A stretch of 63,991 nt of DNA, the filler included, from Dugesia japonica (lineage: Eukaryota), in assembly GCA_001938525.1 (NCBI GenBank). It is 6 parts of 6 records of this genome, joined end to end, with 100 filler letters (N's around TTAATTAATTAA, not from the genome) between each part and the next. Parts side by side here need not be neighbours in the genome. Positions count along the whole stretch, not along the records: positions 9,845 to 19,445 come from MQRL01596384.1; 5 more parts are not named here. The stretch is one strand, 5' to 3'. Every line of letters starts with the position of its first letter. The first letter of the stretch is position 1. This document shows, piece by piece, positions 1,557 to 48,193 of the stretch. Position numbers and translations under genes: made by a program. The notes below the pieces were generated by a model. It saw nothing but the letters and a program-made list of their open reading frames with translations. It was not told the origin of the DNA and made no database searches.

Positions 1557-4280
1557 TAGGGATTCCATTAGTCAATTTTGACCGAAATAGACACGTTTTT
1601 AAAAATACAGAATGTCTTGGGACATATGAGTGTCAATTTTTCCATAAAATATTAATACATGCATGTCCAATGGTCTAATCATTATATAACAGACTCTAAT
1701 GTACACATTAAAAAAGAATATACACATATGTATGTATTATATTCGCTTTACACAGCATACACACATTGAACCGCTATCAAAGCAACTTATAAGTTAATAA
1801 GTAAGAGTAAAAAGTATTTTCAAATTTCAGTTTGGTTTTCTATTTTGCACATTAATCATCATGTATGTTATTCATGTAATGTTAATGGATAAATTTATTT
1901 TTCAATAAATATTTTGTAGTCATGCAAAAAAGTGGGTATGTTTTTGATGATACTTTGACAAAAGAATTCTCTTTTATAAAAAATGTCACAAANNNNNNNN
2001 NNNNNNNNNNNNNNNNNNNNNNNNNNNNNNNNNNNNNNNNNNNNNNNNNNNNNNNNNNNNNNNNNNNNNNNNNNNNNNNNNNNNNNNNNNNNNNNNNNNN
2101 NNNNNNNNNNNNNNNNNNNNNNNNNNNNNNNNNNNNNNNNNNNNNNNNNNNNNNNNNNNNNNNNNNNNNNNNNNNNNNNNNNNNNNNNNNNNNNCTCTTC
2201 ATTCGATGAAGCATAATCACAATATTAAGTCAATGGATTGCACATCAAATATCATCAAAAAACTTTATGATAAAAATTTACTTGCTCTCAAACAAAAGCA
2301 AAAACTATTATTGTGAATAAAATCTCTTCGTGGCCAGTATAACAAATTGTAAAAGACTTGAAGGAAGTCAAATGTAATACTGTTACTTTTGATAGTTCTA
2401 ATCATTTTAATTTAAAAATGTTATCTATTTTAACTAGGTGTTATGGTCCAAAAAAGGAGTACACTAAAGGTATTTGACATGAAAAATTTCCTTGTCGAAA
2501 AATACTATAATCATTGATCATATTTTACATGTTATTGATAAATTTCCTCTAGTAGAAAAAATTGTGGCTTTTCAGCAAACAATACCAACATAAATTTTGG
2601 TGGTAAAAAAAACTAAAAAAAAATGAACAAAATTGTGTTTTCAAAATTGCTGAATTCACTTAACAGAAATATAATTGGAATAGGTTTTGCTGCACACATA
2701 GTACACAATGTATTAAAATCTGCCGAAAATTGTTTGCTAATAGATTTTCAAATTGTAATCGACAAAATTTATCAGCATTTTCCCATTTTTACAGTAAGGG
2801 TAGAAGAATTGAAATAGTTTTGTGATTTTGTTGATGAAGAATAAAAAATTATACTCGGACATTCAAAACTTAAATGGCTGTCATTACTGCATGCTTTACA
2901 GAGATTAAAAACTGTTTAAAAATACTCAAATTGTTGGGGATGATGCAAACCAAAATTAATTACACACACATGCACNCATTCACAACATACATAAAAAACA
3001 TAAAACATACATAATAATCAATAACATCCAATGTTCGAGTCAATCAACCAACTCAAAAAATCCAACCCGAATCAATCCAATTCAGCCAGACTTAACCAGA
3101 GAATTGCAAGAACATTATCCTTATTATATGATTTTGATAACAGACATTTTTCTGATCTTGAACTCTTAGTTTTATTTTTATTATTTGATTTTCAAATTTA
3201 TTCTTAGTTTTAATATTTTAGTTTTAATATTTTATTTAATTACGTTGGATTAAAAGAAAATCAATTATAATAGTAACATAATTCTATAAAGAAATACAAA
3301 GAAATCAATAATATATCAGAAGAAAAATGTGGATTTATTTACATGTCTCTATGAATTGTTACTATTTTTGAGAAAAGATTTGAAAATGTTTCTATATTGT
3401 GTAAATTTTTGTGAATTTCAAATTGTTTTTTTNNNNNNNNNNNNNNNNNNNNNNNNNNNNNNNACATGTTTGAAAATAGTATAAATACTGTAAGAATTTA
3501 GAGTAATTTCACCCCTTATTAAATCCATTCAACAGTTTGTTTCCTTGATAGAAACACAACTGAGGAAAAAATAATAAGTCGACTGTAAAATGATTTAATG
3601 CAATATATTTTTTTAAAAGTAATAATTTGTTTAGTTTGATATAGGACCTACCAAAAAAGTTTTTTTATAAACGTATCATTTTATCTATAATAAACCTTTT
3701 AAGTTATAGAAACACCCAATATATTACGATAATATATTTAGATTGTTGAACAATTAAAACCACTATCAAATTCACGATTTGTTGATTTACTTTTGTAACA
3801 ATCCCTAAAGTATCTCAACAAAATCATATTTTTCTTCTATTAACAAATGTCCTATGGTTATTGAAAATCTTGAAAATCGGCTTTCACTAACATGTTTGTA
3901 CTTTCTCCATTATCAATCAAAGCTTATTTCTGAAGCAATTACAATAGTTAAAAGACAAAACATGATGGTACTCGAAGTCCAGTTTCAAATGACTACATTA
4001 ATTGAACAAATTAAGATACGCCAAACAGAAGAATATATTCCAGGAACTGTAAAAAATCGTTAGACGAATTGATTGACAACGGACTTTTAACACAAAAAAT
4101 TTAAACGTAATGCTGATTATTCTATGATACAATGATAGAATATATGAATTGATGGGAATGCCCCTACAAAGAATTTAATACAATGTCCTGGCAACTCTTA
4201 ATAAAACTGTTGAATGGAGTACAGTCATGAACATATATACACAGATTAAAGATATTCATTCATCCACTGAATGAATCAAG
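1557..4280 (+). mobile_element. Decayed hAT DNA transposon (transposase ~1922-4280), split by a solo LTR and truncated by a Gypsy relic
   Basis: Colinear broken motifs: YVFDDTLTKEFSFIK, FTCSQTK, FDSSNH, NTNINFGG, GIGFAAHIVHN (CxxH-like), TVRVEELK*FCDF, GHSKLKWLSL. Removing 2932-3820 and one AAAT gives LKSYFSSINKCP. A TAGGG-type terminus lies at ~1557. Confidence 0.75.
2932..3820 (+). mobile_element. Solo LTR (889 bp), Ty3/Gypsy-type
   Basis: TGTTGGGGAT...ATCTCAACA termini, AAAT duplicated at 2928-2931 and 3821-3824, TATA-like AGTATAAATACTG at ~3478; excision restores the hAT reading frame. Confidence 0.8.
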
Positions 4281-6850
4281 GGAGATTGCGATTAACTTTG
4301 GAGATCAAGAGAGATGTAATAAAAGATTTGCTGAATCTTGTAAACTATCAACGTGGCAGTTCTTTAAAAAAGTGGAATATTTTATCGATAAATGTTTTGA
4401 CGAAAAAACAAATATTGTAAAAATGTTAATAATTTGCGCAGATATAAAAAAGAGAGCAGTAAAAATAATTAGGAGGAAATTGAAGAAAGCAGAAGATATA
4501 AAAGAAACCCTATCTCTAGAAGAAAAAATAGAAATTAGTAAAAATCCACGCGGGAGTAGCAAGCGAAAAGGTACCAAAGACTGGAGAAGAAACAAGAGAA
4601 AAGTAATTAAGTAAATAACGAAAAAGTAAGAGCAGAACCAGAGTGTTGGACATGCCAGAGTTATAAGCACACAAAAAGGCAATGTCACAAAAATTCACAA
4701 ATGAAATGCTGGACAAGTGGAAAAGGTATTTAAGTAGAAATTGTCCAGACAAGAAACTACCAAAATGTCTTGAGTGTGGTAAGATTGGTCACATCAGAAA
4801 GATGTGCACAGAAATTGTATGTGGTATATGTAAAAATCCGTGTCACAGAGCGGAAGAATGTTATTCGAACATGAACAAGCCAAGACTAGATGAGAGAAGA
4901 CACGATTTTAGAAGCGGATAACAAACTAAAGATTGCAGTTGGACCAAAACACTTCATGCCACTGGAGAAGATGATTTTGAGGTCTGCATACAGGTCTGCA
5001 TACAAATTATAATACTACACATAACAGTCAGCATTCGATCAATTCGAGTCAATCCAACAATCGATAATTTATTCGAGAAATCAATGAGATTTATTTGATT
5101 TTGATAATTTGTTCAAGAACAATGATATTTACTTTTCGAAGGTCGTTTTGTTGATGATCATCGTTTTGGGACCTTGTTAATTTCGTTCTTATTTTAGTTT
5201 ACTTGACTTTATTTTAAAGTTTATTTTATTTATCTTAGTTATAATTAATAATTCAGTTATCTGTTAATCTTGTAAAGCTTATTTTATTTATCTTATTAAT
5301 AATTCAGTTATTTGTACAGTGGAATAAATATAATAGCCGNNNNNNNNNNNNNNNNNNNNNNNNNNNNNNNNNNNGTAATAATTTCAGTAATTGATTTGAA
5401 AAATCTGATTAATTTTAATAATTGTAAATATTTGTTTGCGAATAAAATTGAATATGCGTGTATGTAAATTGAATGTGCATCCTGGAAAATCAGTATAAAT
5501 ACTGATGAGTTTGATGGTAAAGCTAGACTTTTAAATTGAGAAAACCTCTCTCTTTGAGTGGCTTTTCTCCTTTTAATACATTCTAGAGCCTGAGTATACT
5601 ATTATACAGTTACAAAATAAATATTTATAAGGTGTTTATTTATTTTATTCATATAAAAACTAATACAATATATAACTTATCTATACTTTGTTAATATATA
5701 TTTATTTAATATCGTATTTACATACAAACACTAAAAAANNNNNNNNNNNNNNNNNNNNNNNNNNNNNNNNNNNNNNNNNNNNNNNNNNNNNNNNNNNNNN
5801 NNNNNNNNNNATGAGAGTTAAGAAATATTTTCTAGGAACATAATAGAAGATGTAGATCCGAGAAGAGAATACCCACAAGGTAGGGATCCATCAGTAGAGG
5901 CGTTGGTTGTAGCTATTTATTAAACGCGTTACCGTTTGATTATCCTCAGGGGGTAAAAAATAAAATGACATGAGTAAAATGGGAGAAAATGTATACAGAT
6001 TCCTAAAAAAGAAAAGTGTCATTGAGACGGAAGTTGACAAAGCAGAAGTGGTACGAACAATTAAGGATGAACAGAACGTAGAAATTTAGTATGATAAGAT
6101 GGAAGGAGAACTAACATTTCAGTAATGATCAAAGGTGAACAGTTTGATTGTTCTTTAGATACGGAAGCACTAATAAATTTAATGAGCATGGAAGGATTTA
6201 GTAGACTAGGAGAAACAATATTAGAAAAAAGTGGAGAAACATTGATTGCGCGAATAAAAGCTCATTCGAGACAATTGGGAAAATACGTGTGAAAGTTGTA
6301 GTTTCAGGGGTGTGCAAGAAAATAACATTTACCAATTAGATAAATTAATATCAGATCTAATTGGTAGAATGGAATATCAGAATATTTTTGGGTAATACCT
6401 GCAAAGAAAGTGCATAGTAGAAAGCAAAAATCAACAAAAGAAATTTGTTTGAAACATCAAGACAAAATTTGGAAGACAAATACGGACAGGCGAACGATTA
6501 AGACATGCGATGAAGGTTCTAAAAATTACCAAGGATCATAGATTGATTGCGATTATTCAGAATAATGAAGATTTATTTATGAAGGATAAATGGCATATTG
6601 AATGCACACACTTAACAATGAATTGGATAATCACTAAAGGAGGTCCAATCAACATAAAACCTTTTCGTTAAACAATGAATCTAGAAGAGAAGATTGAAGG
6701 GGCCATCAAGAATCTTTATGACATAATGTATGTCGCATTAATGTATGTAATGACATTATGTATGTATAATTCTCAATGAAATACATCTTTAATTTGAGTT
6801 TGAAGAAAACAGAAAAAGGATATACAATTATGCTTAGACTTTAGAAAGCT
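4280..6850 (+). mobile_element. Ty3/Gypsy gag-protease-RT(5') relic
   Basis: Gag RLRLTLEIKRDVIKDLLNLVNYQRG; CCHC knuckles CLECGKIGHIRKMC and CGICKNPCHRAEEC (4682-4921); protease CSLDTEALINLMS (~6150); pre-RT ITKGGPINIKPFR*TMNLEEKIEGAI; LCLDFRKL (~6830). Homologous to 40140-42690. Confidence 0.8.
4990..5738 (+). mobile_element. LTR-like insertion interrupting the Gypsy relic
   Basis: Non-coding block between gag and protease sharing TTCGAGTCAATC and AGTATAAATACTG with the 2932-3820 solo LTR; ends obscured by a gap. Confidence 0.4.
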
Positions 6851-7820
6851 TAGAAGATCAAAAAAATTCTTAGAAGTGGTATGTGAGAAGGTTTCGAAAA
6901 GCGGATTGAAATTTTGTGCTTTGGTTGGAAATCTTCTTCTTAAAATCTTTTTGAAAATTAAAAGTTTGAATTTGGTAAGAAATTTTTTTATTAAAAATGT
7001 GAATAAGGAATATTTAATTTTTAGACAAAAATTAAGAATTAGTTAAAGATTATTTTAAATATTTTTATACAGAATTTATTGTAGACTTTTTTTAAAATGA
7101 CTATTTATTGTAAAATGTCAAAAATATTTTAGCTGAAAATTCAATAAGAAAATCAATATTTTATTCAAAATTTAATAAATTAAAAAGATTTCCAACTAGG
7201 CAGAGTTTTAATTTCTTTGAATAAACAAATAACGATGGTTATAATTTTGCTTTATGAATAAAGTTTTAATGGAATCAAGTTGTCAAATTAATTAATCAAT
7301 GTGTACTTCAAACTCATCTAATACCTGCTATTTTATAAGTGACATTTTTTTCATACATTTCTACCATCACAAATGCATTTGGTACCACAAAAGTTTAGTT
7401 TCTGTTATTGAATGCCCNAAGATGCTTGTGTTTGGAATCTAATTATTAGATGGTGTTTGAATTTAGATTTCTTTTTTAGATATTTTGCATGATCTGGCTA
7501 CATTTTCCATAATAAAATGTAATTTAATTAGTGTGTTTGTTTTTGGTTTGATTTTATTATATTCTGTATTTGAATACAATTTTTCAAATTGTATATGTAA
7601 AATAATTTTCCAAGACAACGAATAATATTATTTTGAAATTTAATTTTCATTAAGTATTGAAAGAATTTTTGTAAATCTAAATGTTCGTTTAAATTTGTGA
7701 TAAATTAAATGTTTACATTTAATATTTTAAATTATTTTCGGTATTGATTAATTTTTCAATGAAATAAGTTACTGAAATTTGTCTTTTGAAGAATTATTTC
7801 AAATAAAAGTATTTGATTAA

Positions 7821-7910
7821 CCCTTGTGTGAGCGTCATGGTACAAATTTAATAATAGCGTTTTAAAATTATTGAAACATTTGTATAATTTGCTTCCCGCT
7901 CACGCAATGA
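7821..7910. mobile_element. piggyBac-type MITE (90 bp)
   Basis: TTAA|CCCTTGTGTGAGCG ... CGCTCACGCAATGA|TTAA: imperfect TIRs, TTAA target duplication, CCC start. Confidence 0.6.
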
Positions 7911-9609
7911 TTAAATCATTATTTAGCTGACAGAAACTTTCAAACGGGTAATTTAGAAGTTAAAACGTTCAGAAAACGTTTTGAAGATAGTGAATAAAAA
8001 NNNNNNNNNNNNNNNNNNNNNNNNNATTCAAAAACACTTTATTATTCAAAATTATTTAATATTAATATATAATTAAATTAATAATTAAAATATATTTAGT
8101 AGAAATAAATGCGAATAAAATTAATTCATATACAATTTAAAATTTGAATTTAAAATATATATTGTCATATTATAAAAAATAATCTAAGTAAAATTTAAAT
8201 TATTTCATATTTAAAAAATTTTAAAAATCACTAATTTTTTGAATTGTCATTCGACAGACGTTTATTTGAAATGTTTCCTATGAATGTAATCCGTTTAAAA
8301 TTTACGTTTACCTTAAGCTATATATGATAGTAATTAATTTTTACTATTTCATTAATTAAATACAGATAGGATTAAAATTATACGATTCTTATTTTGGTAA
8401 AATACTACGAAAATTAGTTTAGACCTTTATAAATGGAGTAATTCTTACTTTTATCTACTTTTATCTCACTATAAAATGTTGAAAAAAATAATTCCATTAG
8501 TTTTACTTTTATAATTATACTTAAAATATTTATGAATGTTAGAAATGGACTTTTTAATGAGCTGATTAATAAATTTTTTATTAATTAATATTAATAATTA
8601 GGGATTTAGTATTACTTTAGATTTAATATTACTTTCACATGAAATGAGCGAGAAAATAACGGATATTATTCGAAAAATAATCAAAAAACATGTATTGCTT
8701 GTATTTATTTTGATTATTTTGAATTATTATCATATATATTAATATTACACTAGAAAAACTTTTATTAATATAATTAATTATATGTTTTAAATCATTATAA
8801 AGTTATGGTAATTTTTTTCAAAAACAAGTTAAAAATAAATTATTCAAAAATTTTTATTTAAGAACGGAAGCGTCGCGAGGAATTACCATCGCGGGTCTTT
8901 TGAGGTCGCACCGTTTGCATCGGCCTCCGTCCAGCTTTGATAGCACACCAAATATTTTAAGGGCAAGAAAACAGAAATGGAAGAGAATATAATATGGTTT
9001 GCGCCTGTGTATTAATACATCATTGAAAAGTAGTGAAATTTTAGTAGTTATTACACTTAGGAGAGAAATAGATGAACATTTTATCACAGAACAATTGAAA
9101 ACTTCACAACTTTCCATAAGTTTTATTTATTATCACAAGTGTTTGAGTANNNNNNNNNNNNNNNNNNNNNNNNNNNNNNNNNNNNNNNNNNNNNNNNNNN
9201 NNNNNNNNNNNNNNNNNNNNNNNNNNNNNNNNNNNNNNNNNNNNNNNNNNNNNNNNNNNNNNNNNNNNNNNNNNNNNNNNNNNNNNNNNNNNNNNNNNNN
9301 NNNNNNNNNNNNNNNNNNNNNNNNNNNNNNNNNNNNNNNNNNNNNNNNNNNNNNNNNNNNNNNNNNNNNNNNNNNNNNNTTAAAAAATGTTTTCTTATTT
9401 TAAAAATCTGTAATGTACTTTTTTTTACTATAATATTTGAAATAATATTTAAATATTTCGAAAATAAATTTTAATATAATATAATATAATATATACCAAA
9501 TTAAATAATGTCCCAGATATATTTAATCTATGAATCACTCTTACACCCCCCTCTTTAAAATTTTTTCCACATTTCTTTCGATTATCTTTCCTTCTGAACT
9601 CTTCAGCAG

Positions 9610-9690
9610 CAGAGGCGTAGCTACGGGGTGGCAGGGGGAGACAAGTGTCCCGTGGCGCCAGACAAGGGGTCACCAAAATGGGGTTTGAAA
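9610..9690 (+). mobile_element. hAT-like terminal fragment
   Basis: CAGAGGCGTAGCTACGGGGTGGCAGGGGG resembles CAG(G/T)GGCGTAG hAT termini; no partner end seen. Confidence 0.35.
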
Positions 9691-9744
9691 TATTTGTATT
9701 GTGTATTTTTTGCATCGTTTTAATATGATATCTATCAAGATTGA

Positions 9745-9844
9745 NNNNNNNNNNNNNNNNNNNNNNNNNNNNNNNNNNNNNNNNNNNNTTAATTAATTAA
9801 NNNNNNNNNNNNNNNNNNNNNNNNNNNNNNNNNNNNNNNNNNNN
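9745..9844. other. Artificial scaffold linker
   Basis: 44 N + TTAATTAATTAA (stops in all six frames, 9789-9800) + 44 N. Confidence 0.95.
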
Positions 9845-9930
9845 GAAAACCTTCCATTCGAGTAATTGGAGGGCTATTTTGACAACATTTGCTTTGTGTG
9901 ACCATGCGTTGTCGTGAAACAAGATTAATT
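9845..9930 (-). pseudogene. mariner transposase fragment (catalytic region)
   Basis: LILFHDNAWSHKANVVKIALQLLEWKVF matches mariner ILLHDNARPH.A......L..L.WEVL. Confidence 0.75.
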
Positions 9931-10414
9931 GGCTAAGCCGATAGTGTCTGAGTTCTGTACAAAAATTATTTCTTGTGGCCGCATTCCGCTCGAACGTGAT
10001 GTATCCATGCAATTTGGAGGTTTTCTTAGTGTTGTTCACTAGGATTGTAGGGCACCAAAGCTCAAAATATTCACTCAAAACCCATCTAATCAATGCAGTT
10101 CGTCGTCTCGGCAAATTCTCTTAGAAAATAAGAACAAAAAGAAAAGAAATGGAAAATGCACCAAGGGAAGACGGAGATAAATAAACATGAAACAAAACCA
10201 CAATGAGAGAAACAAGAAAGAAAACAAATATAATTAAAAATATGAAAGCTGTTACGCGAGTTGTAGCACAAAAGGAAAAAGATAAGCAACAATGACATGC
10301 AGCATTTCTCACTTTTTATTGCAAACTTTATTACACAACTCCACAGGTTAGTCCGACATGTGTTGTCTTGTTACATCGACAAACAACATTCCGTTATATA
10401 GACAAGGACCATAT

Positions 10415-10680
10415 AGCGAGGACTGGTGAATATTGGTATAATAATTTCAATAATGGTAATTCTGAGCTCGACAACAAGACCTGCTCCGGTCGACCAATCA
10501 GAATTTGATGCAAAATATCTTCGGGTGCTTTTAAAGGAGGATAGCCACTAAGCATGTCACTATGCAGGTCTTGTTGTCGAGCTCAAAATTGCGATTTTTG
10601 AAATTATTAAACCAATCTTCAGCAGTCCTCGCAGCTATCTGATCCGAATGTAGAGCGTGTATATCAAGTAAAAAGACAAC
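10415..10680. pseudogene. Two head-to-head mariner N-terminal HTH fragments
   Basis: + strand ARTGEYWYNNFNNGNSELDNKTCSGRP; - strand ARTAEDWFNNFKNRNFELDNKTC; both match mariner RT...WF..F..G.F.L.D..RSGRP. Confidence 0.65.
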
Positions 10681-13600
10681 ACATTGTGTTACTGAGCATT
10701 TTTTAACGGAAAGAGAAGAAATGCAGGAATCCATTTAACGAATATTGTGCGTGTAGATGAATCCCATTTAATATCAACCCGGTAACAATCCAACCTGTTA
10801 AATGTCGGAGAATTTCGTTGTGCTCCCACGCCGCACATGTAAAAACTCAGTCATTGAATGAGTGAGAAACCGAAAGGCAAAAAAGAAATTAGAAACGTAA
10901 GGATTTCTTACAAAAAAGAAAATGGAAATAAAAATGCGTTCTGAAGGTGGCAAATATTTTGGTTCAATCAACCATTCGTACAAGATGAGCCGGTCGATGG
11001 TGTGTTCGATTAAAAATCCAAGTGGAAAAGAGCGTAGATCACAAGTATAAAGACATATCGTGTTACAGAGCAGTTTACAACGAAAAAGAAAGAAATGAAG
11101 GATGTGTATACATAAGAGCAAGTATGTAGTGTCGTCAGCCACTCAGATTACCAAGGGTCAAAGGAATACTCATATAAAAGTGCTACCACAAAACTTGAAG
11201 TTGCTTGTTTTTACAAACAAGTTTTGGCGTCCTGGGAGGTTGACCCTCCCCCTTGAACTATGGATAACAGATGGTAATTCTCGNNNNNNNNNNNNNNNNN
11301 NNNNNNNNNNNNNNNNNNNNNNNNNNNNNNNNNNNNNNNNNNNNNNNNNNNNNNNNNNNNNNNNGGGGAACTCTTTAAGTAACAATAAACCGGGACAGTC
11401 CCGAATACTCAGTTTATTGGTAACAACTCGATCATTACATCAATATGAAATATTAGAAGATATTCTCATTAATTAAATAAATTATATAATAAAATCGTGA
11501 CAAAATTTACTTTATTAAAAATCAAATCAAATAGAAACAATCAATAAATTATGTTTTATTGTAATAGTAATTTTCTATTGTTGAAAAAGAAAAAGTTTAT
11601 TGTGAATATTAAATAAAATCATTTCAAATAATAAATAAATTAAAATTTAATGAAAATTTTATAAAACTAAATTAATTACAAATAACAATTTTATAATAAT
11701 GTACTTACTGATTTACTTAAAAAGGCACTTCTACTTAAGATAGATGTCATAGAAGATTTAGGATAAGATTCTGAAATATTATGTTCATTAAATGAGGCCT
11801 GGAATCTCGAAGGACGTAAATTATTGGTATTTAACAATAAATTTTCAATATTTTTAACATTTTCATTATGATCTTTTTGACTATTTACTAGGATAGATAA
11901 TATAATTTAATATAATTTTAAGTTAAAAAGAAATCACTTTTGAAATTAAAATTTCTTCGATGACTTAATTGTTCAAGTAGTTTTCTGGACTGTGAAGTTA
12001 AAGAATTTTCCATAATTAAAGATTCAAATGTAAATAATTTTCAGTATCTATAAACTATTTTTATTAAACAACTTAAACATAAAATTAAACAGTAATTAAT
12101 TTATATTAATATTATGGATTTAATGGAAAATATTGGAAATATTTGAGTGAATGAAATTGTTTCAAAGATTATAATAATTTTAATATCTTAAATTAAAGTT
12201 TAAAGATGGTCTGAACTAAATGTAAAATTACAGAAACAATAATCAAGAATTAATTAAATAATAAAACTNTAATTAAATTATATCTTTCAAAATTATCAAA
12301 TGTTAAATTAATATGACATTTATCAAAAATTTTAATTTTAAATTTGATTTTCTAAACGAAATGTATTTTACCGAAATCGAGCATGAATAAATTTAAACCA
12401 TGTAAGCAATTGGGTAAATAAAAAGAAATTCGCACTGTTACTTTCTATTTTCCCCAAAAATTTCTAACTACTTTAATACCTAAAATGTTGAATCATCTAA
12501 CCACTTAACAAAATTAATATTTATTACTGGTAAAAAATAACTTACACTGAATGATAAATATGTTGGGGCGAAACACCCAGTTAATGAAACAAAACCACAT
12601 AAGCTCCAATCCGTAAAGAAGAATAGTAACGGCATCACAAGGGCCCATTAGGGAAGAAAACAGTCACGATCATAAACCAGACGCTACGTATAAACCTTTA
12701 AAAGAATGAAAAATTCAGAAGGTGGCCACAGAAAAATTGGGTGAATAAAGATGATGTACATCAATCTCATGAATTAGGAAAATTACCAAAATCCATAATA
12801 AAACCAAGAAAATCATTAATCAAAATAACTATTTTAAAAAGAAAAAATATTAATTAATTCAGAAATAAATTAAACCAAAATTAGCAAAAAATTCGTTTTA
12901 TACGAATAACTTTACAACCAAAAGACACAGGAGCTGGGCAGAAGAACATTTGGAAAGGATTTGGATCAGGTCATCTGAATTTTGGCACGAGAAACTGGTA
13001 CCACCATCTAGAGGACCTCCACGAAGATTCTAAGATCGGTCCAATAGCAATCTGAAATTAAAAAAATAAAACAAAGTACTAAGCCTCACCTGATGATTTA
13101 AAAATAACCGCCAATTGGAATTCTAAAACTCTGAAAAAATTTTAGAAAATTGGCAGTAGAACCAATAGAAAGCAGTAAACTCAAATTAAAAATAACCAGC
13201 GAATATGAAAAAATTGGGGTGCGAAGAAAAATCGTATAAAAGGAATCATGGAATTTGCAGAAGGAACTACAAAAAAACTACAAAAAACAACTAAAAATTC
13301 AACTCAAATCAAAAAACCGCGAATTTGACAATTATCTGAGAAAAGTTATCAACAAAATTCTACTACGATAATAATAGTTGGAAAAAACGTGATTAGTTAT
13401 CGTGCATCGATCAATTTACCGCCAAACCACAAAGTAACTCTATTATTTGGATCGTGAATTAATTTCAATTTTTCAAGACAGCAGAAGTTACGACACCCAT
13501 TATCTATATTCCGAAGATCATTTATTCACAATTGACTTGTAGCAACTGTTGCAGAAATCCTTTTGAAATTGTTAAATAGTAAGTAATCTGTTATGTTGTA

Positions 13601-14598
13601 TTACAAATAATATAATTTTTAGGATAACTTGATGCAATTTTTTAATTTTATTTCTATTTCGATATTAATATTATTAACAATAAAAATATTTTTTGTTTTC
13701 TGTCGATAAAGTTCACTTATTAATCATACTTCCTACCCGCATGATCCGCAAAATTGAGTAAATCTGTTAAATCTAATTTCATCTGAATATTGGTATGTAT
13801 AATTACTCATTTTTTTCGTATATTCAATGTCCGACTGACCTTGTTAGTGATTTAAGTTGACATAATGGGTAGATTAATTGAAGAAAATTACTACCATAGT
13901 GTTAGTGATAAATTATCTTGATCACCGATATAAAATGAAATTGGTCTGTTATCCTGCACACTCACAGTTATTTTTCTATTCACCAGTGTGTGTCGTAATT
14001 TTTACCATCAACCCATGTATGACCTTCAAGGTGCTAAGTAACAAGTAGCGCCCGAATTTAATTAAAATTAAAATCCAACTATATGTTCAAATATTTGTAT
14101 TTGTTGTCAATAACTAATATAATAAGAAAAAGAATAAATATAAATAATTATGAGCATATATACATCTAACAACATATAACAACATTAAAATAACGTTATA
14201 ATAATGATATATAATAATATTATAAACATTAATAGAAAAATTAAAATAATAATAGATTGATATGCTATCAGTGTATTAGTTTATGGTTGATATATTTACT
14301 AGTAGTAATATTAGAACTAATATTACTCCTTTCACTGACATTACCACTGTTACCATTGACACGTATTATTGACTGGATCCTGTAGAAGCGAACCTTACTA
14401 AAATTATGGGGAAAAGAAAATAGTGCTATTGCGACCATCCCTGCTACTCACCTTAACTATTATATCCAGGTTCTTGAGAACTCCATAGAGTGAATTCATT
14501 CTTGTCATTTTTGATCTCTACCAACAAATAAAAAAAATTTGTGGGAATATTTATTTCTTGCGGATGGTATAGTAATATGAATCGGTTTTAGATATCCC

Positions 14599-14784
14599 AT
14601 GTCGGATATACTCCTAACAACTCTTCAATTAATTCAACGAGAACTTGAGCGATCACGCAAAAGGCAATTAATCGGACATCTCATAGCTCCCAGCCTGATT
14701 ATGCATCCTGACGAAACGGATTTGATTTGCTTCGCCGAGATGTTTCCGTTGCNAGCGAAATTAGATAAAGATGAGGAAGAATAG
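14599..14784 (+). CDS. LTR-borne small protein a (unknown; HPDETD motif, acidic C-terminus)
   Basis: ELERSRKRQLIGHL..HPDETD.ICFAEMF aligns with copy B ERQRVRRKQLLAHL..HPDETD..FVEMF; TTTTAG acceptor at ~14591; AATAAA at ~14815. Confidence 0.6.
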   Translation: MSDILLTTLQLIQRELERSRKRQLIGHLIAPSLIMHPDETDLICFAEMFPLXAKLDKDEEE

Positions 14785-14926
14785 TCTTTGCGATAGTACA
14801 ATTAATTTAATTGAAATAAAAAATTCAGGCTTGATTAAATGTCTAATTTAAATTTTATTTCTTATTTTCTCCGTTTACTGATGAATATACTAACATGTTA
14901 CGATAAATCAAATTTTATGTCCCAGA

Positions 14927-15268
14927 ATGGAATCAATATGGGAAATGGACCGCAGAACTCGTCGAATAATTTTTCGACGACATAGGAACCCGCATAATCG
15001 GGACGCAAGCATTCTATCTGACCAGTCCAACCTACCCCCAGTAGAAGCAATAGTCGCCAGAATCCAAGACTTTGGTGAGAGACAAAGTTATCAGAGCTGG
15101 ACAGGGCCTGACCGAACCCTTGCCACGTCATTCCAGTATCAACCTTCAGCCCCACCCCCAGCGGTGCAGGCCTTTATTAACAATTTATTATGGGGTGTAA
15201 GAGAACCCTCGGGTAGCGAATATTTAGAGAATACCGCACCCGTGGCTGATTCGGCACCTACTCTTTAG
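14927..15268 (+). CDS. LTR-borne small protein b (113 aa, Arg-rich N-terminus, Pro-rich centre, unknown)
   Basis: Intact ORF after CCCAG; aligns nearly end-to-end with copy B (DRRTRR.IFRRHRN, DQSNL.PVEA.VARIQ.FGER, SFQYQP.AP.PAVQAFI.NLLW) with many third-position differences. Confidence 0.7.
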   Translation: MESIWEMDRRTRRIIFRRHRNPHNRDASILSDQSNLPPVEAIVARIQDFGERQSYQSWTGPDRTLATSFQYQPSAPPPAVQAFINNLLWGVREPSGSEYLENTAPVADSAPTL

Positions 15269-15466
15269 AGGTATTTTTTTGTGTGTTACTATAAAATACC
15301 TTATTTTTCCGGACTTATAACAAAATCTTTTTATCCAGTAAAGTTTTCTTTTATTAAAAATAACATTAACGATGGATAATTGTCCACCGAGTAACAATAG
15401 GTGTAAGTGGTTGGTGTTATTCACCAAATCTTTATATTATGTTTGATCAATTTCGTTTTCTTCTAG

Positions 15467-15801
15467 TGCACTCCTCACTGAATCGCGTTAGAACCCCGAC
15501 CAAGAAAGTGAGAGCTTCTAGTGACGAAACCGAGATCACTTTGGACCTCTATAAGTTGGCCAAGCGGCGCTGGGAGGCTGATGTAGCAAACGCAGCTGCC
15601 AAAGTTCAGCGTTAAAAAAAGAAGTGCCTAGCCTTCAAAGCGGAAGCCGAGATGTCCNNNNNNNNNNNNNNNNNNNNNNNNNNNNNNNNNNNNNNNNNNN
15701 NNNNNNNNNNNNNNNNNNTTGGTGATATTATGAATTTGAGAAAAATCATGCCCCTAACACCGCTGATGGTGGATAAAGGGGTCCAGACCTCTTGTCCGTA
15801 A
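15467..15801 (+). pseudogene. LTR-borne small protein c exon (coiled-coil-like, unknown)
   Basis: After TTCTAG acceptor: (V)HSSLNR..PTKK...LYKLAKRRWEADVANA ... PLMVDKGVQTS; same motifs in copy B; one stop and a gap. Confidence 0.6.
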
Positions 15802-15924
15802 ACCTTATTTTACTGCAATCTAATATATTTTTCTATTGTGTTTAATTTCGTCCGAATTATTTCCGTCTTTACATTTAGTTTTATCATAAACAAAATATGA
15901 ATATCATTAATAATTTTCTTTCAG

Positions 15925-16312
15925 TGCCTCAAATTATCTTTCCGAATAGTATTCGACGTTGCCACAGAATAATGCACCGTCTCTTAGTAGAAAGGCACCT
16001 TAAACGGAAAACAGACAGAGCACTAATAAAACATCTTACTCAACAAGATAAACTTATAAAGAAACTTGATCTGATAGTTAAAAAACAAAGTGAGCTAGCT
16101 ATCCAAACAAAAGCCCTCTAGGAGGAGAATGAACAATCCTTGCAAAGGAAAATTGACTTCTTATTTATTTATTTTTTATTTCTGACCTCTTCCGCCAACT
16201 TGGCAACCTTACTTGGGTGCAATGGGACGACAATGATGACATAGCTTCGTTCAATTTTTTGTAAACTGACCCAGCCCAGTGGCTCGACCCTGGCGTTTTC
16301 GATGAATTATAA
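15925..16312 (+). pseudogene. LTR-borne small protein d exon (coiled coil plus Trp/acidic tail, unknown)
   Basis: After CTTTCAG acceptor: (V)PQIIFP...LLVERHLKRKTDRALIKHL...KKLDLIVKKQ...KIDFL...ASFNF..DPAQWLDPG; conserved in copy B. Confidence 0.6.
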
Positions 16313-17040
16313 TGTTTTAATAATAGATGTTTTAAAACAATGTTTTGTTTGAGTTATTTAAGGGAAAATCATGAACGCAAATTAAAGGTGTACGAGAGTG
16401 CACCTCCCATGAAGTAGGAGGTCAACCACTCTACACTGAATACCTAAACTAGGGGCTTTATGTTAAATTCTTGAAAGGTTCCCCTGAGGGCTGTTTTTCC
16501 ACAGCCAACAACTTTTTGATACGTAACTCAGGTGGAACCCCAACAAATATGACATCAATTTATATTGAATTAGGTAATTAAATTTAGTTTTAAGGTATAT
16601 AATTAATGTAAGTAGAAATTATGACGGGGCGATGTTTTTTAGAGTGCGTTGAGGTTAGTAGGTGACATTTCAATTTTCTTAACTGAAAAATTACTATGAT
16701 AGATTCATGGAAATAATAATTGTAATTAATGACTATATACTAAACTATTTGATTAGCATTAAATTGAAAAATTGATTTCAAAGTAAATTATTAAACTGAA
16801 CAATAAAAATAGTAATGAGTATATAATAGATTTTATTAAAAAAAGCTTCGATCAATTTTTTTGTTTTTAATAATATTTAGAATTTTATTTTTATAATAGA
16901 AATATATTTTTGAATTAATTTATTTTATTGAATTCTAAATTGGTAGTTTTAATTATTTAATTATTATAAATTACATTGATTTAAGATTATCTTCTTTAAT
17001 TAGTAATTCTTCATGTTTTGTACCAGTATTAGATTATAAA

Positions 17041-32102: not shown

Positions 32103-35100
32103 AATTATAATAATTTAAATCAAGGTGGAAGAGGTATCAAGACAAAGAGTTTAATTAAAGTAAATTTATTATCAACACTTTATATTTGTTAAAATTATTT
32201 ATTTAGAATTATGATGCTTCTGTTGTTGCTGCTCCTGCTCCTGTTGCTGGTACTATCTATGATAAAAGTTCGTTTTTATTTTATAATTTATTTTATGTTA
32301 ATTTTTAATATTTTTGTAAAATATAATACAACTTATTTTTCCCAGAATGTTGTACAATGTACAAACATTATTGTGCAAATCGGACTCATAAAGGTGACTG
32401 TCATAGTATTATGGAGAGATACTATGCACATTGTTTTTATGAGAAAAAGTATTACATATGTCCATCATGTAGGTCTTTAGGAATAGGTGAATATTTAGAC
32501 TTTAATAGCTTGCATGCAGAACACTTAGGGCAGTTTACAATAAATAAGAAACAATTATTAAGGATGATATAAGATAATGAGATAGATAAGCCACCAACAA
32601 AAAAACGAAAAGAAGATGTTATCTCAGATGAAGAAATGAAGATGGAATCTCAGATAATTGATGATGATTGGACCGATTTTTAAATCATAGATGAAATGGA
32701 TGAAGAAGATATTGCCACGCAAAGCTTTATGGATGAAGAAGAAGCACAAGTTGGTGGGTCCCTCAATGAAGATGTGATAATAGAAAGTGACTTATATAAA
32801 TGTCACCAGATAATAAAAATGAATGTTTCAAAGTAAAATATGAGAGAAATCGTTTTACCAAACTCATTGATTGAGCAGTTATTCAAAATTATTGAAAAAT
32901 TAAAAAATGTCAAGATCCAATTCGGGATAAATGTTGAATTCAAGAAAGAAGACGATACAAAAACTTGTAGATTGTTGAATCGAACTGTTCCATTGAGTGA
33001 TTCTTGTTTCGAAGATTGGATAAAACAGTTAAATGAGAAGATAGCTATACGAAGTGAGCTCGGATCTAGCTGGATACTGAGCCGCATACTGGAAATAAAT
33101 TTTAAGATCACCAAGATAACAGATATTAGAAGGCTATCTGGCCATTGCTACATTCTAACACCAAAATACCTCGGGACAAAANGGCTGTTGTTAACGTTAA
33201 AAACAAGGACAACAAGTGTTTCATATATAGTATCCTAGCAATTATCAAACAGAAACAAGTTAGAGAAATAACAAATACATGTCTGAATTAGTCTTTGATG
33301 AACCATGCCTATGAAACTGTCAGATATTCCAATGTTCGAAAAGAGAAACCAGGGCTTATCAATTAATGTTTTCAAATGGAATTCACAATCAATGGAGGAC
33401 GATGATGACGTTATCATGACGCATCCGAATTTATACATTATACATCGGTCTAAATGCGATGGAGAAAAGATCAATTTATTGTTGTTAGAAGATGACAACA
33501 AATTTCATCACACTGAAGTAATGAATTTGAATAGATTGATGAACCGAGATATTAAAAAGGATGGTTATTGAATTCGATCAATGTGGTCTGAAAATTGTCT
33601 TAACGGATTCTGGGATATAACGGCTTACAATACTCATGAGTCAATTTGTGAGAAAATTGAGACGGGCACCACATTATACAAGATGCCCACAGAAAAGAAT
33701 CTAGAGTTTCAAGATTACTCAAAAACTAAAAATCCACCCTTTGTTATATATGCTGATTTTGAATCAGTATTACCAAGCAACGAAAAATATGTCCAGAAAC
33801 ATTTACCTGTTTCAGCTAGACTGTTGTTGATAAATAATTTTACCAATGCAGTAAAATACAGCCAGTTTATTAAAAATAAATGCGTATATGAATTCCTAAA
33901 GGCAGTGGAGAAAATTGGTAATAATATAGTATATCATATTATATTAAAGAAGGAAAAATGAAACGAATTATGAACTCGGATCAAGAAATAAAATTTAAAC
34001 ATAGTACAATATGTCATTTGTATAAAAATCCTTTATGTAATCCAGTTCGGGATCATAACCATTTTACAGGTAAGTATATAGGAGCCGCCTGTAATAAGTG
34101 CAATTTAAGCAGAAGAATCAACTATCAATTACCTGTAGTCTTCCATAATTTGAGAGGATTTGATCTTCACCATATATTAAAGTATGAATTAAATAAATTT
34201 CCGCATGAACCATATCATGTATACCAGCAAAATCAGAAATATTCCTATGCGTCATTGGAGATCTGAAAGAAATTACAAGGAAATTTATTGACTAGTACCA
34301 ATTTATAAACTCTTCATTGGATGCAGCAGTCAAATCCTTAAAAGAGACACCTTTGACAACAAATGAATTTAAAAACAGCAGAATAACAATGTCAAAAGTG
34401 ATATTTCCTTATAATTATGCCACCAGTTTGGAGATTTTGGTTAAAACAACAACAATACCACCAAGATGGGAGGAAGTTAGTGAACAAGATTATCAAAAAG
34501 CGGTGGAAATGTGGACTATAACAGGATGCAACAATTTATTGGATTATATGCTAGTATATTTGAAACTAGATGTGTTTTTGTTAGCCGATTTCTTTCAACA
34601 GTTTAGAAATAAATCATTGGCGCACAATAATCTGGAGCCATTAACATTCTTTGGCATCCCAGGTATGAGTTGGGCATCTGTATTGATGTCATTAAATTGA
34701 ACTGTTGACTGATAATGATATGTATACCTTTTTTGAAAGGGGTATACGAGGTGGGCTAACATTTGTAAATAAACATCATGTTATTAGTAACGAAAACACA
34801 GGTTTATTATACATCGACATCAACAATCTATATGGATTGGCATTAAGTCAGAAATTGCCCTATGCCAATTATATATATATATACTGGATTGGATTCAGTA
34901 TTGGAAGAATGTAGAATAGAAGATCTCGATTCGTTACCATATTGATACACAATAGAAGTGGATATGGTTATATCAGCAGAAATACAAGATGAACTGAATG
35001 ATTTACCTGTTGCAACAGAACATCAAAGTGCTCCAGGTAGTAAAGTGATAAAATTAATGCTGACTCATTGCTCGAAAGAAAATTATGTCATACACTGGAG

Positions 35101-35996
35101 ATTGCTGCAAATTGATCTGCAATTGGGTGTACAAATAACAAAGGTACACAGAAGTACAAAGTTAAGCCAGGCATCTATTTTCATACCATATATAGATGTT
35201 AACACTAAATTAAGATCAGAGTGTAAATAAGAGTTGGAGAAGAATTATTATAAGCTTTTAAAAAATAGCCTGTATGGTAAAACAGTTGAGAATTTAAAGA
35301 AGAGTATGAATTTAAGATTATGCAATTCAGCTCAAAAATTGATGACATATATATCAAAAGCTGGATTCAGAAAAACAACTAAAATTTATGATGATCTAAT
35401 AGCTGTTTGGTTGAGCAAAGACATAATTTGTTTGGACCGACCGAGTTAAATAGGACAGACTGTACTGGAATTAAGCAATTTAAGAATGTACCGGTTACAG
35501 TACATTGAGTTGAAAAAGTACATAAAAAGAAGAAAATTGTGAGATAAATATAGTAGCCGGTGATACGGATAGATTTTTCTTGGAGATTAAGAACATAAAA
35601 TTGGAAAAACTAACTACATTAATGGTGAAAGACCAACTATTAGATACGTCCAATTACAGCACAAACGATCCCCTTTACAGAAAAAATTTTAATTTAGTAA
35701 TTGGAAAGTTCAAGGATGAGAGTAAAGGGAAGAAGTATCAAGAATGGATATCTTTGAGACCAATGTGTTATAACCTACTTAGAGAGAAAGAATCAATGAA
35801 AGCTAAGGGCGTAGCATTTAAAGGTACTGACATTCGTAATCAGTTATACCTTGACTGTTATATTAATAATGAAACGGTCTCAGTAGATCAATTTCGAAGT
35901 ATTAAGAATAAAAAAATAGTTCTGTCTAATAAGGATGATAAGCAAGTATGGACAGAGAAAAATTGAAGCTTACCATACGGGAATTATTTATTGTAA
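32103..35996 (+). pseudogene. polB: Polinton/Maverick (adintovirus-like) protein-primed family B DNA polymerase, many stops and frameshifts
   Basis: YADFES (ExoI), VRDHNHFTGKYIGAACNKCNL (endonuclease VII-like insert), FHNLRGFD (ExoII), YLKLDV (ExoIII), GIRGG, YIDINNLYG, KLLKNSLYGK, GDTD, GKFKDE, KAKGV; predicted GT-AG introns 32160-32206 and 32268-32345. Confidence 0.9.
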
Positions 35997-40139: not shown

Positions 40140-42690
40140 CTAAAAAAATTTTGTCGACAATATTGTTGTCTTTTCGTGTTTTTTTTGGCAATGGTATAAG
40201 AACCAGATATTTATTGTACTAGTCAATTATTCCAAGATTGTATTTTTTCAGTTCACTTGTTTCCCGCATTGGCTCAAATATATCTGTGAAAATGACTTCA
40301 AACAAATTTGTCGCTTTTAATCTATTTGTCTTCTCTTTAGTTGATGTCGTCACTACTTTGGTCTTCTGCAAATTTCACAACTGCGAACTATCTTCTGCAT
40401 TTGGCTCCACAGGTTTTAGCAATGTATTTGTTGCTTATATATTCGTATACCTCAACTTCTGCTTGACATAATGATTTATGCATTTTTACAATTGTTTCAT
40501 GTATTTTGTCATTCGAAATTTTTTTCTTGATTAAATCTTTTTCCTCAGAAATGTTTAATTGCTCTTCTTTTTCCTTTTCAATTATGTTCAGAATTCTCGT
40601 TTTAATCTTCCCTTTCTTGGCGTCTTCGTGTGACATTTGACATTGTAAACATACCTCACATCTTGGTCTAGATAACATATCTGCGTTAGCATGTTGAATT
40701 CCTTTTCTATATTCCGAAATCAGATCTAAACTGCCCAGATAATTAATGGAATTGCGACTTAATTGGTTTCTTTATCGTCATCATGAAAGTTAGAGGTTTA
40801 TGATCTGTTCTAAGAGTAAATCTTCTACCGCACAAGTAATGTTTGAAATGTATACAGAAATAATACACAGCCAATAACTCTTTTCGTGTATTGCAGTATC
40901 CCTTTTCATGACTCGTTATATAGTGTGATCCATAAGCAACAACTCTTTTTCTTCCTTCTTTATCTCGATGTGACCATACTGCTATAATTGATTCGAAACT
41001 GGCATCTGTATCTTAAATAAATTCTTTGTTTATGTCTAGAAAACACAATATTAGTGCAGTCATTAGAGATTATTTCAGATTTTCAAAAGTATCGTTTATT
41101 TCATCAGTCCATTCTAATTTCTTGTTGCTTGATCCACTACACAACTGTTCTAAAATCTTTGACTTTCTTGCGTAGTTTTCTTTAAACTTCCTGTAAGAAT
41201 TACTGATTCCCAAGTAACTTTGTAACTTCTTCACACAATGAGATTTGTCAAGTGTTGCTATTGCTTTTAAATTTAGACGGATCAGTTCTAACACCATCTC
41301 TGCTATTATATGTCCCAGAAAAACCTTGATTTCGCTTGGAAGAAACTGACCCTTTTCTGGATTAATTCTTAGACCAGCCTTCATAATTTCAATCAATATT
41401 ATGTCAATTACTTCATAGTGCTGATCTTTGTTATTCGTAAATATCAGAATGTCATCAAGATAAACCATGGCTCCATTGATTCCGCCAACCACTTTTGTCA
41501 TCATCTCTTGAAATGTCCCTGGTGCTGCTGCGATGCCAAATGGCATTTTAGTAAAACAATATTTTCCGTGTTTTGTTGAAAGCGCTGTTTTTTCTTGAAA
41601 TTCATCTTGCCAGCTACACCTGATAGTACGCATTTCCCAAATCTTTTGAACTGAAATATTTGGCTTCATCTAACTTGTCCAGTATTTTATCGACATTAGG
41701 CATCGGAAAGGCTTGTCTTATCGTTACTGCATTCAATTGTTTGAAATCCAAACGTATTCTTAGTTCTTTCTTATCTTTTTTCCAAAGACAGATAAGTGGG
41801 GCATTCTATGGAAAGTTGCATTTCTGGATAATAATAATCTCGAAAATGTTTTGGATAGCTTCTTCAATTTTAGATTCTAAGTTCATTGGTTGTATATACG
41901 GTTTTACATCGATTTGTTCACCACTTGGGATTATTTTGTGTCTTGATAGATGTGTGCGCCTTACATCCCATTTATCTGCGATAAAAGCATCTTCTTTACT
42001 TTCAATTATTTTCAATAACCGTTGATCCTCTTTAATCTCCAAAGTATTTTGGGCTCTTGTCAATCGCTCTCTTTTTTTTTAATTTGTCTTCCGAATTTAG
42101 CTTCAATATTGCAAATGTAATTTTCGACTTATTCATCGGTTTTGCTTTCAACCTTTTGCATAAGTTGGTATCCAAAAATCCTCTGTAAGTCTATTCCTCT
42201 TATCAGATTTGGTGTCACTCTTTCAGCACCTAACTTCTAATTGAATCCACTCGATCTCTTTTTTTCTCTACTCGATCTACTAACGTCATTGTTTCTTCAA
42301 TTTCTTCTATATTCTCTCGTTTCCGCAAAGTCACTTCTTCTTCAACTTTTTTGTTATCTGAACAATATATTAGCATCTTTGAATGTCTTCATTTCCACGC
42401 CTGTAGTTAATCAAATTTTGAAAGTCTTTGATAACATCTTTCTCTTTATCAAATACCATACGTAAACGAGCCTGAAAACTTTCAACTTTTTTCAACGTCT
42501 TTACATATTCTTCCAAAAAATCTTCATCTAACAAATAAGAGATTAATCTCTCTTGTGGTTTCACATGGATGATGGTTTTGGCTTCAAAATACAATTCACA
42601 CCGCTTGATGAATTTCTTAATGCCATCTTCTCTGCAGAAAACCTTTAGCATTAACCTCTCAGTAATGGAATCGGTATTTACCGCTACCAC
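40140..42690 (-). mobile_element. Ty3/Gypsy gag-pol relic (gag, RT, RNase H, integrase 5' part)
   Basis: KTALSTKHGKYCFTKMPFGIAAAPGTFQ, VYLDDIL, RNase H TDAS..RKELLAV..FKHYLCGRRFTLRTDHKPL, integrase zinc-binding region followed by FEVIFTDI; order RT-RH-INT. Confidence 0.9.
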
Positions 42691-42699
42691 CGTGTTAGG
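42678..42699 (-). promoter_or_regulatory. LTR 3' end and primer-binding site of the Gypsy relic
   Basis: - strand CCTAACA-CGG-TGGTAGCGGT at the 5' edge of gag. Confidence 0.6.
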
Positions 42700-45600: not shown

Positions 45601-46871
45601 TAAAAGTTATCAGTAAATTCAGGACACGACGAGAAATAATATAAAGGTAGACAACCCGTTGCACGATCAACAATTATTAAAAAAACTGATTTGAAAGTAA
45701 TATTTAATTCTGTATATATATGCATTAGTTATGCTGTAATGAAATTGATAATAAGATTTATTTATAAAATTGTTAAAATAATTATCTGATTAAATAAGAA
45801 AACAGGAAACTTTTGATTATCATAAAATACATTTAATTACAATTAGGATTCTCTATCCAACGCGTAGTTGCTAAAAATAGATTTCCAGTAATAGAAATCA
45901 CCACCACTCGTACTGATAACAATTTTGGTAATTCCTTTATAATAATTTCATCATGTAGTTTGACTGAGTCAATGATGATAGCACAAGAAATAGAATGCTT
46001 GTGTTTATCTTGTTGAATAACTATTTTCAATGCAGACAATAAATGTTCTTTTATAAACAGACTTCAGTGTGTCTCAAGTATTGCTGTCGACCTGTCGTAA
46101 TTAGGGTGTATGTTCACCTCTACTCCCTAATTGTTGTGTCATAAAAAGAAATTTACTGACATGAATCATGCTTTCTTATCCAAACAGATATTTAAATCTC
46201 TCAACGTGCAATCCAATTGTCAGTTTCTGTAAATAACACTTGTCCCAATTATGGATTTAAAGAGTGGATTACCGGCAATGCAAGTACGAATGTCTTATAT
46301 CAAACACCCAGGATTACCTCTTCGCGTACCGGAATTACTATCTCTCAATGCAGCACGAATATTTTATAGCAAGTTATCATTTGATCATGTCTGTAATAAA
46401 AGAATTTGTTTAGTGTTCATTTAGCTTTTAATAAATAAATTATTTCACCATAAAAATTGTTTATGCAATACGAATCTCTGGGATAACCCTGTAAATGAAG
46501 ATCAATTAATAAGGAACGATTATTTTTGTAGTGATCTAATAAGGATGTTAAATCAGCGTAAAACTAATCTGAACATAATGAGGTCAATTTTGTTACCCAC
46601 CAGGATTTTTACCTTTATCAACAAGTGTTTCAGGATATAATTTTATGTTGATGATTACACTCATTTTTCCCACCGACAATTATCGGGGGTTCAAAAACCT
46701 AGCCTTCAAAGGCGAATGGCACTTTTTAATCAAGTATTTTTTTATTATGGCCAGATAATGTTAGTTTGACGTTGGGGGTTGTCCCATATGGGTTCAATGG
46801 AACCATGAATAGGATCTGTATCACAACTAGTATATAGAATTTAGTTTTCATCTTATTATTATATGTATTAG

Positions 46872-47065
46872 GTAACAAAAGATATAAGTAAAATTTTGTT
46901 GAAGATATTGAGATCCATTCTTAAGGAGCGGCAACGAGTGCGTAGAAAACAACTTTTAGCACATCTGCTTACGGCTGGAGTAGTGGAGCATCCCGATGAG
47001 ACAGATCGTGTTGTTTCGTCGAGATGTTCCTGTTAAAGCCAGGGGTCAACATAGACGAGGAATAA
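46872..47065 (+). pseudogene. LTR protein a, copy B
   Basis: ATTAG| VTKDISKILLKILRSILKERQRVRRKQLLAHLLTAGVVEHPDETD..FVEMFLLKPGVNIDEE*, one frameshift. Confidence 0.6.
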
Positions 47066-47237
47066 CCTTCTTCATTTTATTTTTGGTTTGTGTATTTAAT
47101 CATAGAAAATATAAAATCAATTGTTATGATTCAATCTTATTATAATCATTATCTATAATTTACTCATTATAATTCTGTTACATCTTACAGCAACATTATT
47201 AAATGGCTAAACTAATTGTAGATCTTCACCATTAGAA

Positions 47238-47580
47238 ATGGAATTCATATGGGAAAGCGTCGTTGATCGACGAACGCGCCGTGTAATTTTTCGACGGCAT
47301 AGAAACCTGTATAATCGTGACGCGGGCATTCTGCTGATCAATCAAATTTAACCCCCGTGGAGGCTATGGTGGCCCGGATCCAAAATTTTGGAGAACGGAA
47401 AATTATCAGCAGTGGAACGGACCAATACGTAATCACACCACTTCCTTTCAATATCAACCTCCAGCCCCACTCCCAGCCGTGCAAGCCTTCATCACGAATT
47501 TGCTCTGGGTGTAAGAGAACCCACAGGTGCTGAGGACTCTGAGAATACCGCTCCCATAATCATATTGCTTGTGATTTTGA
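47238..47580 (+). pseudogene. LTR protein b, copy B
   Basis: MEFIWESVVDRRTRRVIFRRHRNLYNRDAGIL..DQSNLTPVEAMVARIQNFGERKNYQQWNGP...ENTAP, with frameshifts. Confidence 0.65.
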
Positions 47581-48068: not shown

Positions 48069-48193
48069 TGTTTATAGTTTTTGTAAATAAATGATTCCAT
48101 TGGATAAGTCAAATTCTTTTGTCTGAATTATTCACTCGGTTAATCTTCGCATATGTTACGAGAATAAATTATTTAATAATATTTCTTGTTTAG

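Follow-up and report, generated by a model that had tools for sequence, protein, structure and literature searches.

Here we analysed a stretch of 63,991 nucleotides from the planarian Dugesia japonica (assembly GCA_001938525.1; six parts of six records joined with filler, called the window below, positions being counted along its full length) and found that two related 4-kb elements carry, in the same order, a cassette of four small open reading frames (ORFs a to d) that is genuine coding sequence evolved under strong purifying selection. The elements, A (12561-16545, forward strand, 3985 nt) and B (44828-48788, forward strand, 3961 nt), are with a probability of roughly 0.6 solo long terminal repeats (LTRs) of a giant Ty3/Gypsy-type element, whose accessory genes would lie in the U3 region and be expressed by splicing, an arrangement known chiefly from complex retroviruses.

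Element A is flanked by the target duplication AATA (12557-12560 and 16546-16549) and element B by ATTA (44824-44827 and 48789-48792). Both begin with TGTTGGGG and end with CCCCAACA, the ends forming an inverted repeat that is perfect over 8 bp and imperfect over about 20 bp, and the 20-nt 3' terminus common to them occurs twice in the window and in none of 100 shuffles. A preliminary description of this DNA had claimed two insertions of near-equal length with these coordinates, duplications and 8-bp inverted ends, devoid of gag, pol and transposase and holding four ORFs in one order with the motifs it quoted, and our results agree with it on each of these points. A Pfam scan of 19 pieces and frames of A and B returned no family at the curated cut-off and no transposase remnant, and the same scan did detect RVT_1 in an unrelated Gypsy remnant (41073-41669). 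Identity between A and B is 68-70% in a 5' block, 53-74% in the ORFs, 48-57% in the spacers and 82% in the last 185 nt, and the 1.4-kb middles align at 46% identity at most. The 5' block (12789-13076, no strand assigned; 45098-45383 in B) is conserved and non-coding, with 15/18/18 over the codon positions, hence no bias, in the single frame tested. The 3' end (16361-16545, forward strand; 48601-48788 in B) is also conserved and non-coding and contains ATTAAA followed by stem-loops. Its fold scores z -3.6 in A and -1.4 in B, with one of 32 pairs changed on both sides, and these 185 nt resemble an R-U5, for which we regard them as a candidate.

Because protein alignment favours a coding outcome, the codon test was repeated on a frame-blind DNA alignment, in which the differences between A and B within the ORFs fall 89/65/201 on the three codon positions (p = 5e-20); all six ORF segments were codon-biased at p < 0.02 and all four non-coding controls were flat. 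Over 317 protein-aligned codons the proportion of differences was 0.22 at nonsynonymous sites (pN) and 0.82 at synonymous sites (pS), and the shifted-frame and antisense controls for this pN/pS test gave 1.28, 2.23 and 1.06. Since a pS of 0.82 exceeds the correction limit, synonymous sites are saturated and the ratio of the corrected rates (dN/dS) has no point value, its bootstrap upper bound being 0.09 for the A/B pair. These values bear out both the divergence of third positions under preserved protein similarity and the purifying selection that had been proposed, and they lie far from the outcome named in advance as grounds for abandoning the proposal, namely a dN/dS near 1 with ORFs no better kept than spacers. 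Stops or frameshifts occur in six of the eight ORF copies, a and b of element A being the only open ones, and selection therefore acted on active lineages and not on the insertions A and B. The stop codons of a, c and d stand at the same place in the two copies, which argues that the ORFs give separate products.

ORF a (14599-14784; this and all ORFs below on the forward strand) encodes 61 amino acids and is open in A, with 25/19/40 over the codon positions and an AG 7 nt ahead of its ATG in that copy; its counterpart in B (46884-47065) is frameshifted and has no start codon. ORF b (14927-15268; 113 amino acids, open in A, codon positions 17/12/52) has an AG 1-2 nt ahead of the ATG in A and B alike, and its counterpart in B (47238-47585) is frameshifted. 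The main exon of c (15467-15801; 47762-48068 in B) encodes a basic helical part and an LC8-type motif (at 15772 and 48039), and d (15925-16312; 48194-48541 in B) encodes a basic helix, a long helix and an acidic tail, c and d each being broken in both copies. The description of a to d as four genes stands as regards their coding signal, but not as regards intact genes, most copies being broken and c and d having no ATG at their conserved edge in either copy. They begin instead with YAG/TG (the slash marking the predicted splice boundary), in phase 1 and after a pyrimidine-rich tract, an arrangement seen at all four c and d starts, with YAGTG occurring across the window at a rate of 0.0011 per base. 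The codon bias of c begins exactly at this AG/TG (8/7/8 in the 23 codons upstream, 9/8/24 in the 42 downstream), and an in-frame upstream extension of c was rejected for want of codon bias there.

The start of c would be supplied by a predicted mini-exon with an ATG (15372-15402, forward strand, 31 nt, phase 1), joined to the main exon by splicing that we infer from the sequence. The predicted intron between them (15403-15466, forward strand, 64 nt, GTAAGT to YAG) is 73% identical to B and has no codon bias, and the claim that the spacers have diverged thus holds for most of them but not for this block. Copy B has an equivalent mini-exon of 16 nt with an in-frame ATG at 47673, also in phase 1, followed by a counterpart of the intron (47689-47761, 73 nt, GC to AG) with the donor-like GCGAGT. 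A hairpin in the c intron was not significant (z about -1.1). In B only, a decayed fifth ORF, e (45847-46805, forward strand), has 7 stops in about 320 codons and a TTAG acceptor-like site directly before it, in phase 1. Its stop density was matched by none of 300 local shuffles, for a range picked after looking, and when 728 windows were scanned without bias, only the reverse transcriptase and the 32-34 kb polymerase-like remnants ranked alongside it; scans of Pfam, PHROGs, NCBIfam and PDB sequences gave no family match for it. The middles of A and of a third relative, C, gave no support for coding remnants, 5% and 15% of shuffles being as good. The splice-site layout of c and d, ORF e and relative C are new in this work.

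Relative C is a 5' part only, on the reverse strand (44301-48973), interrupted by B and left in pieces at about 48793-48973 and 44301-44827. It matches A with 69.7 bits (local-shuffle maximum 42.5) and B marginally, with 51.1 bits (shuffle maximum 49.7), and no cassette was detected in it. A 385-nt duplication, 99.7% identical (48901-49285 and 50313-50697), lies beside an N gap and covers the 5' end of C; it is likely an assembly artefact.

Sequencing runs, 4 of 24, were compared with copy B only. Run X2 covers B without a break, for which reason we take it as DNA; of its 10.2 million contigs, 4024 match B. The summed depth, which is not copy number, is about 70-200 over the middle, mostly 670-1350 over b to d (9007 in one bin), 1900-6900 in the 5' block and 5000-13,000 towards the 3' end. 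We read this as a large, diverged family in which the ends and the cassette are shared more widely than the middle. Run X1 gave 35 matching contigs out of 144,130. At 47830-47870 there are contigs of X1 and X2 whose match is confined to the core of ORF c and which run on into different sequence at either side of it, suggesting more distant subfamilies keeping that motif. The two oligo-dT runs, of which about a quarter each was read, have few reads on B: 42 among 13.6 million in X4 and 3 among 11.6 million in X7. All of these reads are partial, most are less than 90% alike and most fall within the last 170 nt, and no start or end peak was called in this gathering at the 3' end. Oligo-dT libraries under-report planarian LTR elements, according to the parts of the source covered here, a scope that applies to every publication we cite (PMC6884822), and these sparse reads therefore neither show nor exclude expression.

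The proteins of the cassette had been described as unrecognised, and they are so still: no Pfam, PDB, PHROG or NCBIfam family fits, Foldseek gave no match at E 0.001 among viral structures, the scans of PHROGs, NCBIfam, PDB sequences and Rfam yielded no family for the cassette, and no tRNA genes were found. A HMMER search with ORF b against 1.84 billion representatives returned two matches. The first, P0002 (94 amino acids, 44% identity to b, E 2e-11), lies on one 512-nt ENA contig, shares its first Met with b and ends near b's end. The second, P0003 (E 4e-9, 1141 amino acids, six repeat-like stretches), was rejected as a relative of b, the match being driven by repeats. Three word-index protein searches (b at near lengths, a piece of c at longer lengths, the alignment of d) were all empty. 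We also rejected EMG1 for a piece of d (18 bits in Pfam, below the cut-off of 28.2) and RHS-repeat matches to b in the ESM Atlas (0.82-0.83, within the shuffle range); the ESM Atlas held no match for d. Protein-pattern scans confirmed none among 6, 66 and 86 viral candidates and none among 44 prokaryote candidates, scans with the terminal 19-20-mers found nothing in viral contigs, and all six metagenome matches to these 19-20-mers were due to chance, sharing only the motif.

The tail of c reads D-K-G-V/I-Q-T, with D at -4, K at -3 and a V/I-Q-T anchor, matching the preferences of LC8. Judged by its residues, this tail has what clients of LC8 (DYNLL) have, that is a T/I/V-Q-T anchor, a polar residue at -4, a large basic one at -3 and no proline. 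This anchor with its -3 and -4 preferences has been described, as has the rabies phosphoprotein, in which an LC8 motif stands beside a dimerisation domain (PMC12017986, PMC6607443). We incline slightly to the view that c is helical, dimerises and binds the hub protein LC8. That d is a basic, helical and acidic transactivator, as its composition and a weak model might indicate, appears rather doubtful.

Placing A and B among solo LTRs of a giant Ty3/Gypsy-type element agrees with their TG..CA ends and short inverted repeat and with a duplication, in the 4-6 bp range of Ty3/Gypsy LTRs, around a single repeat. The full-length parent would produce transcripts reaching the 3' LTR, there to be spliced to one of several tandem acceptors, each splice choice yielding one small protein. 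A single upstream donor, in the mini-exon before c or in a leader exon of the parent, could serve c, d and e because all three enter in phase 1. The small proteins would regulate the element's own cycle or the host cell, and recombination between LTRs would leave solo copies that then decay. Solo LTRs are recombination leftovers and do not transpose, and both copies are decaying, hence the earlier notion that the module is spread by solo-LTR formation has to be given up. The earlier claim of giant LTRs is plausible, since the ends and target duplications fit and the long inverted repeats of Ginger elements are missing, but the flanks of A and B show no primer-binding site, polypurine tract or gag-pol.

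This last finding is one of several that weigh against the solo-LTR reading. No loose ends were seen at the termini of B among the matches listed, and no splice joint was found on B in the two RNA runs, whose reads are partial and mostly less than 90% alike. The predicted donor before c reads GC rather than GT in B, the sequence shortly upstream of d showed neither a donor nor a start in A or in B, and the AG at c might partly reflect a conserved Leu-Val codon pair. Between the ORFs there are TATA-like and poly(A)-like words, compatible with separate transcription units. As to the products, a Rev-like role for b is weakened, its Arg-rich stretch not being kept in P0002; both AlphaFold structure models are of low confidence (pLDDT, the model's own confidence score, 58 and 61); and the LC8-type pattern, found only in the two c copies among the 114,723 six-frame residues of the window, was written after seeing the c sequence.

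The alternative that survives best, although we consider it unlikely, is that the 4-kb unit is a complete non-autonomous DNA element moved in trans by a Gypsy-like integrase or a Ginger-type transposase, with genes of its own served by local promoters and poly(A) sites, in the manner of a miniature DNA virus. None of the three copies in the window is paired, each being solo or truncated, TATA-like words precede the c mini-exon in A, and the near-equal lengths despite unrelated middles suggest a size constraint, which however fits an LTR as well. Ginger1 and Ginger2 resemble A and B in their TG..CA ends, 4-bp duplication and length of 3-7 kb, and Ginger2 in particular in its 4-bp duplications at AT-rich targets and its TGTNR ends, but they have long inverted repeats (40-270 bp in Ginger1, 50-180 bp in Ginger2) and a transposase, neither of which is present in A or B (PMC2836005). 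Compared with Ginger1, A and B have no inverted repeats of 40-270 bp and no CCGG/CCGT target; compared with Ginger2/TDD, they lack the inverted repeats of about 50-180 bp and share the AT-rich 4-bp duplication and the TGTNR ends. The inverted repeats of A and B are far shorter than those of Ginger elements, and no transposase remnant appeared in any frame scanned; the integrase-like transposase of Ginger1 and Ginger2 was not found by the Pfam scan, and non-autonomous copies may lack one. The ends are moreover asymmetric, with ATTAAA and a folded 3' block where RNA reads gather. Polinton/Maverick was rejected for A and B, which have no 6-bp duplication and no AG-type termini (PMC6839031).

It is less probable still that A and B are LTRs in which one or two larger spliced genes have a to d as their exons, or in which a to d form an operon resolved by spliced-leader trans-splicing, a process that flatworms use (PMC4558846). 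An acceptor-like AG stands ahead of every ORF and a donor-like GTAAGA inside b is kept in both copies, but the codon pattern continues downstream of that GTAAGA, a, c and d stop at the same place in both copies, and P0002 starts at b's Met and ends near b's end. Last, the idea that the ORFs are captured fragments of host genes, passive riders without function for the element, could draw on the different cargo of the two middles and is already largely refuted, very little probability being left to it, by the fact that order, spacing, stop positions and protein sequence have persisted while synonymous sites became saturated, by a third lineage (P0002) that keeps b, and by the lack of any cellular homologue of b among the 1.84 billion representatives.

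Among known systems, Burro has internal regions of up to 25 kb and exceeds 30 kb with its LTRs, and Burro and GYPSM1, likened here by their description, resemble A and B in the multi-kb LTRs that these sizes imply, in accessory ORFs and in their thousands of copies (PMC6431247). They differ in that their accessory domains lie in the polyprotein and in internal ORFs, none being described inside an LTR in the parts of that source covered. A location of protein genes in U3, with expression through spliced RNA or internal promoters as would be the case for the cassette, is known from mouse mammary tumour virus (MMTV), where sag and exon 2 of rem lie in U3 of the 3' LTR, and from the overlap of nef in human immunodeficiency virus (HIV) (PMC12789967). 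No sequence similarity was detected between the cassette and the MMTV or HIV genes; MMTV, a vertebrate retrovirus, has one ORF and one exon there, whereas A and B have four to five unrelated small ORFs in an AT-rich genome. The env of insect Gypsy elements receives its start from a spliced leader exon (PMC2585583; bioRxiv 2023.08.03.551782), and env of Drosophila gypsy is comparable to c and d as an ORF without its own start, taken from a spliced upstream exon, but it is a single large gene of the internal region, upstream of the LTR, instead of several small ORFs inside a terminal repeat. In the literature covered we found no multi-gene cassette described in a planarian or other invertebrate Gypsy LTR, a point on which uncovered supplements may bear; of the supplements covered in part, PMC11410931 gave no match and PMC10954484 holds primers only.

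The closest candidate for a catalogued relative is GLT2 of Schmidtea mediterranea, the comparison with GLT and GLT2 covering the first 400 nt of each probe (PMC8532177 Table S1). Inspected by eye on its reverse strand, the GLT2 probe shows an AT-rich tract that ends in TTGTTTAG/TG, the sequence found at d in B. An open frame of about 79 codons follows in phase 1 and holds three short motifs, arranged in the order that they have in d and at similar spacing. These motifs, picked after the comparison, occur only in d within the six frames of the window. With 3 mismatches allowed, one GLT2 primer and one GLT primer found no match in the window. A Mariner-2 primer had no match there either. The GLT probe, also by eye and on its reverse strand, has an AT-rich spacer and then a small GC-richer open frame, in which no likeness to a to d was noticed. 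The source treats GLT2 as a PIWI-silenced transcript and describes no ORFs in the parts covered (PMC8532177). On the strength of the tract and the motifs we think it fairly probable that GLT2 and the ORF d family are distantly akin; if this kinship is true, the cassette family has likely been catalogued already as a repeat.

The window holds further features. A small decayed Gypsy remnant on the reverse strand (40223-42717), to which the RVT_1 match belongs (E 2e-18), showed no link to B or C. A 200-nt repeat of 83% identity (685-884 and 42693-42893) has one copy overlapping the start of a Gypsy gag-like frame. The pieces of a broken long ORF at 32200-35970 (forward strand) are among those with the lowest stop densities in the window, and we take them, from their motifs, to be a Polinton-type family B DNA polymerase; Pfam gave no match for the one piece submitted. 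Frames at 9800-10370 (reverse strand) and 62645-63063 (forward strand) presumably resemble, again from motifs, a mariner-type transposase and a non-LTR reverse transcriptase respectively, the latter with no Pfam match. Inverted repeat arms of about 700 nt and 92% identity (56280-56976 and 58992-59685) surround a core of 2 kb; the whole may be a DNA transposon ending in long inverted repeats.

Taking the results together, we tentatively propose, at somewhat less than even odds, that the 4-kb LTR may be a modular accessory genome, with four fixed spliced regulatory genes and an exchangeable cargo slot, in which one product would hijack LC8 and to which the PIWI-silenced GLT repeats would belong, encoding such proteins themselves. 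To our knowledge LTRs count as non-coding DNA, and small spliced ORFs are rarely sought in them for repeat libraries. A strongly selected cassette of four to five genes would show an MMTV-type layout in an invertebrate retrotransposon as well and would add several new protein families. If the likeness to GLT2 is true, candidate regulators would be encoded by transcripts that already serve to reveal PIWI loss in planarians, and one could test directly how transposon proteins released from silencing affect cell differentiation. The modular LTR, if it is true, would be the retrotransposon counterpart of a complex retrovirus.

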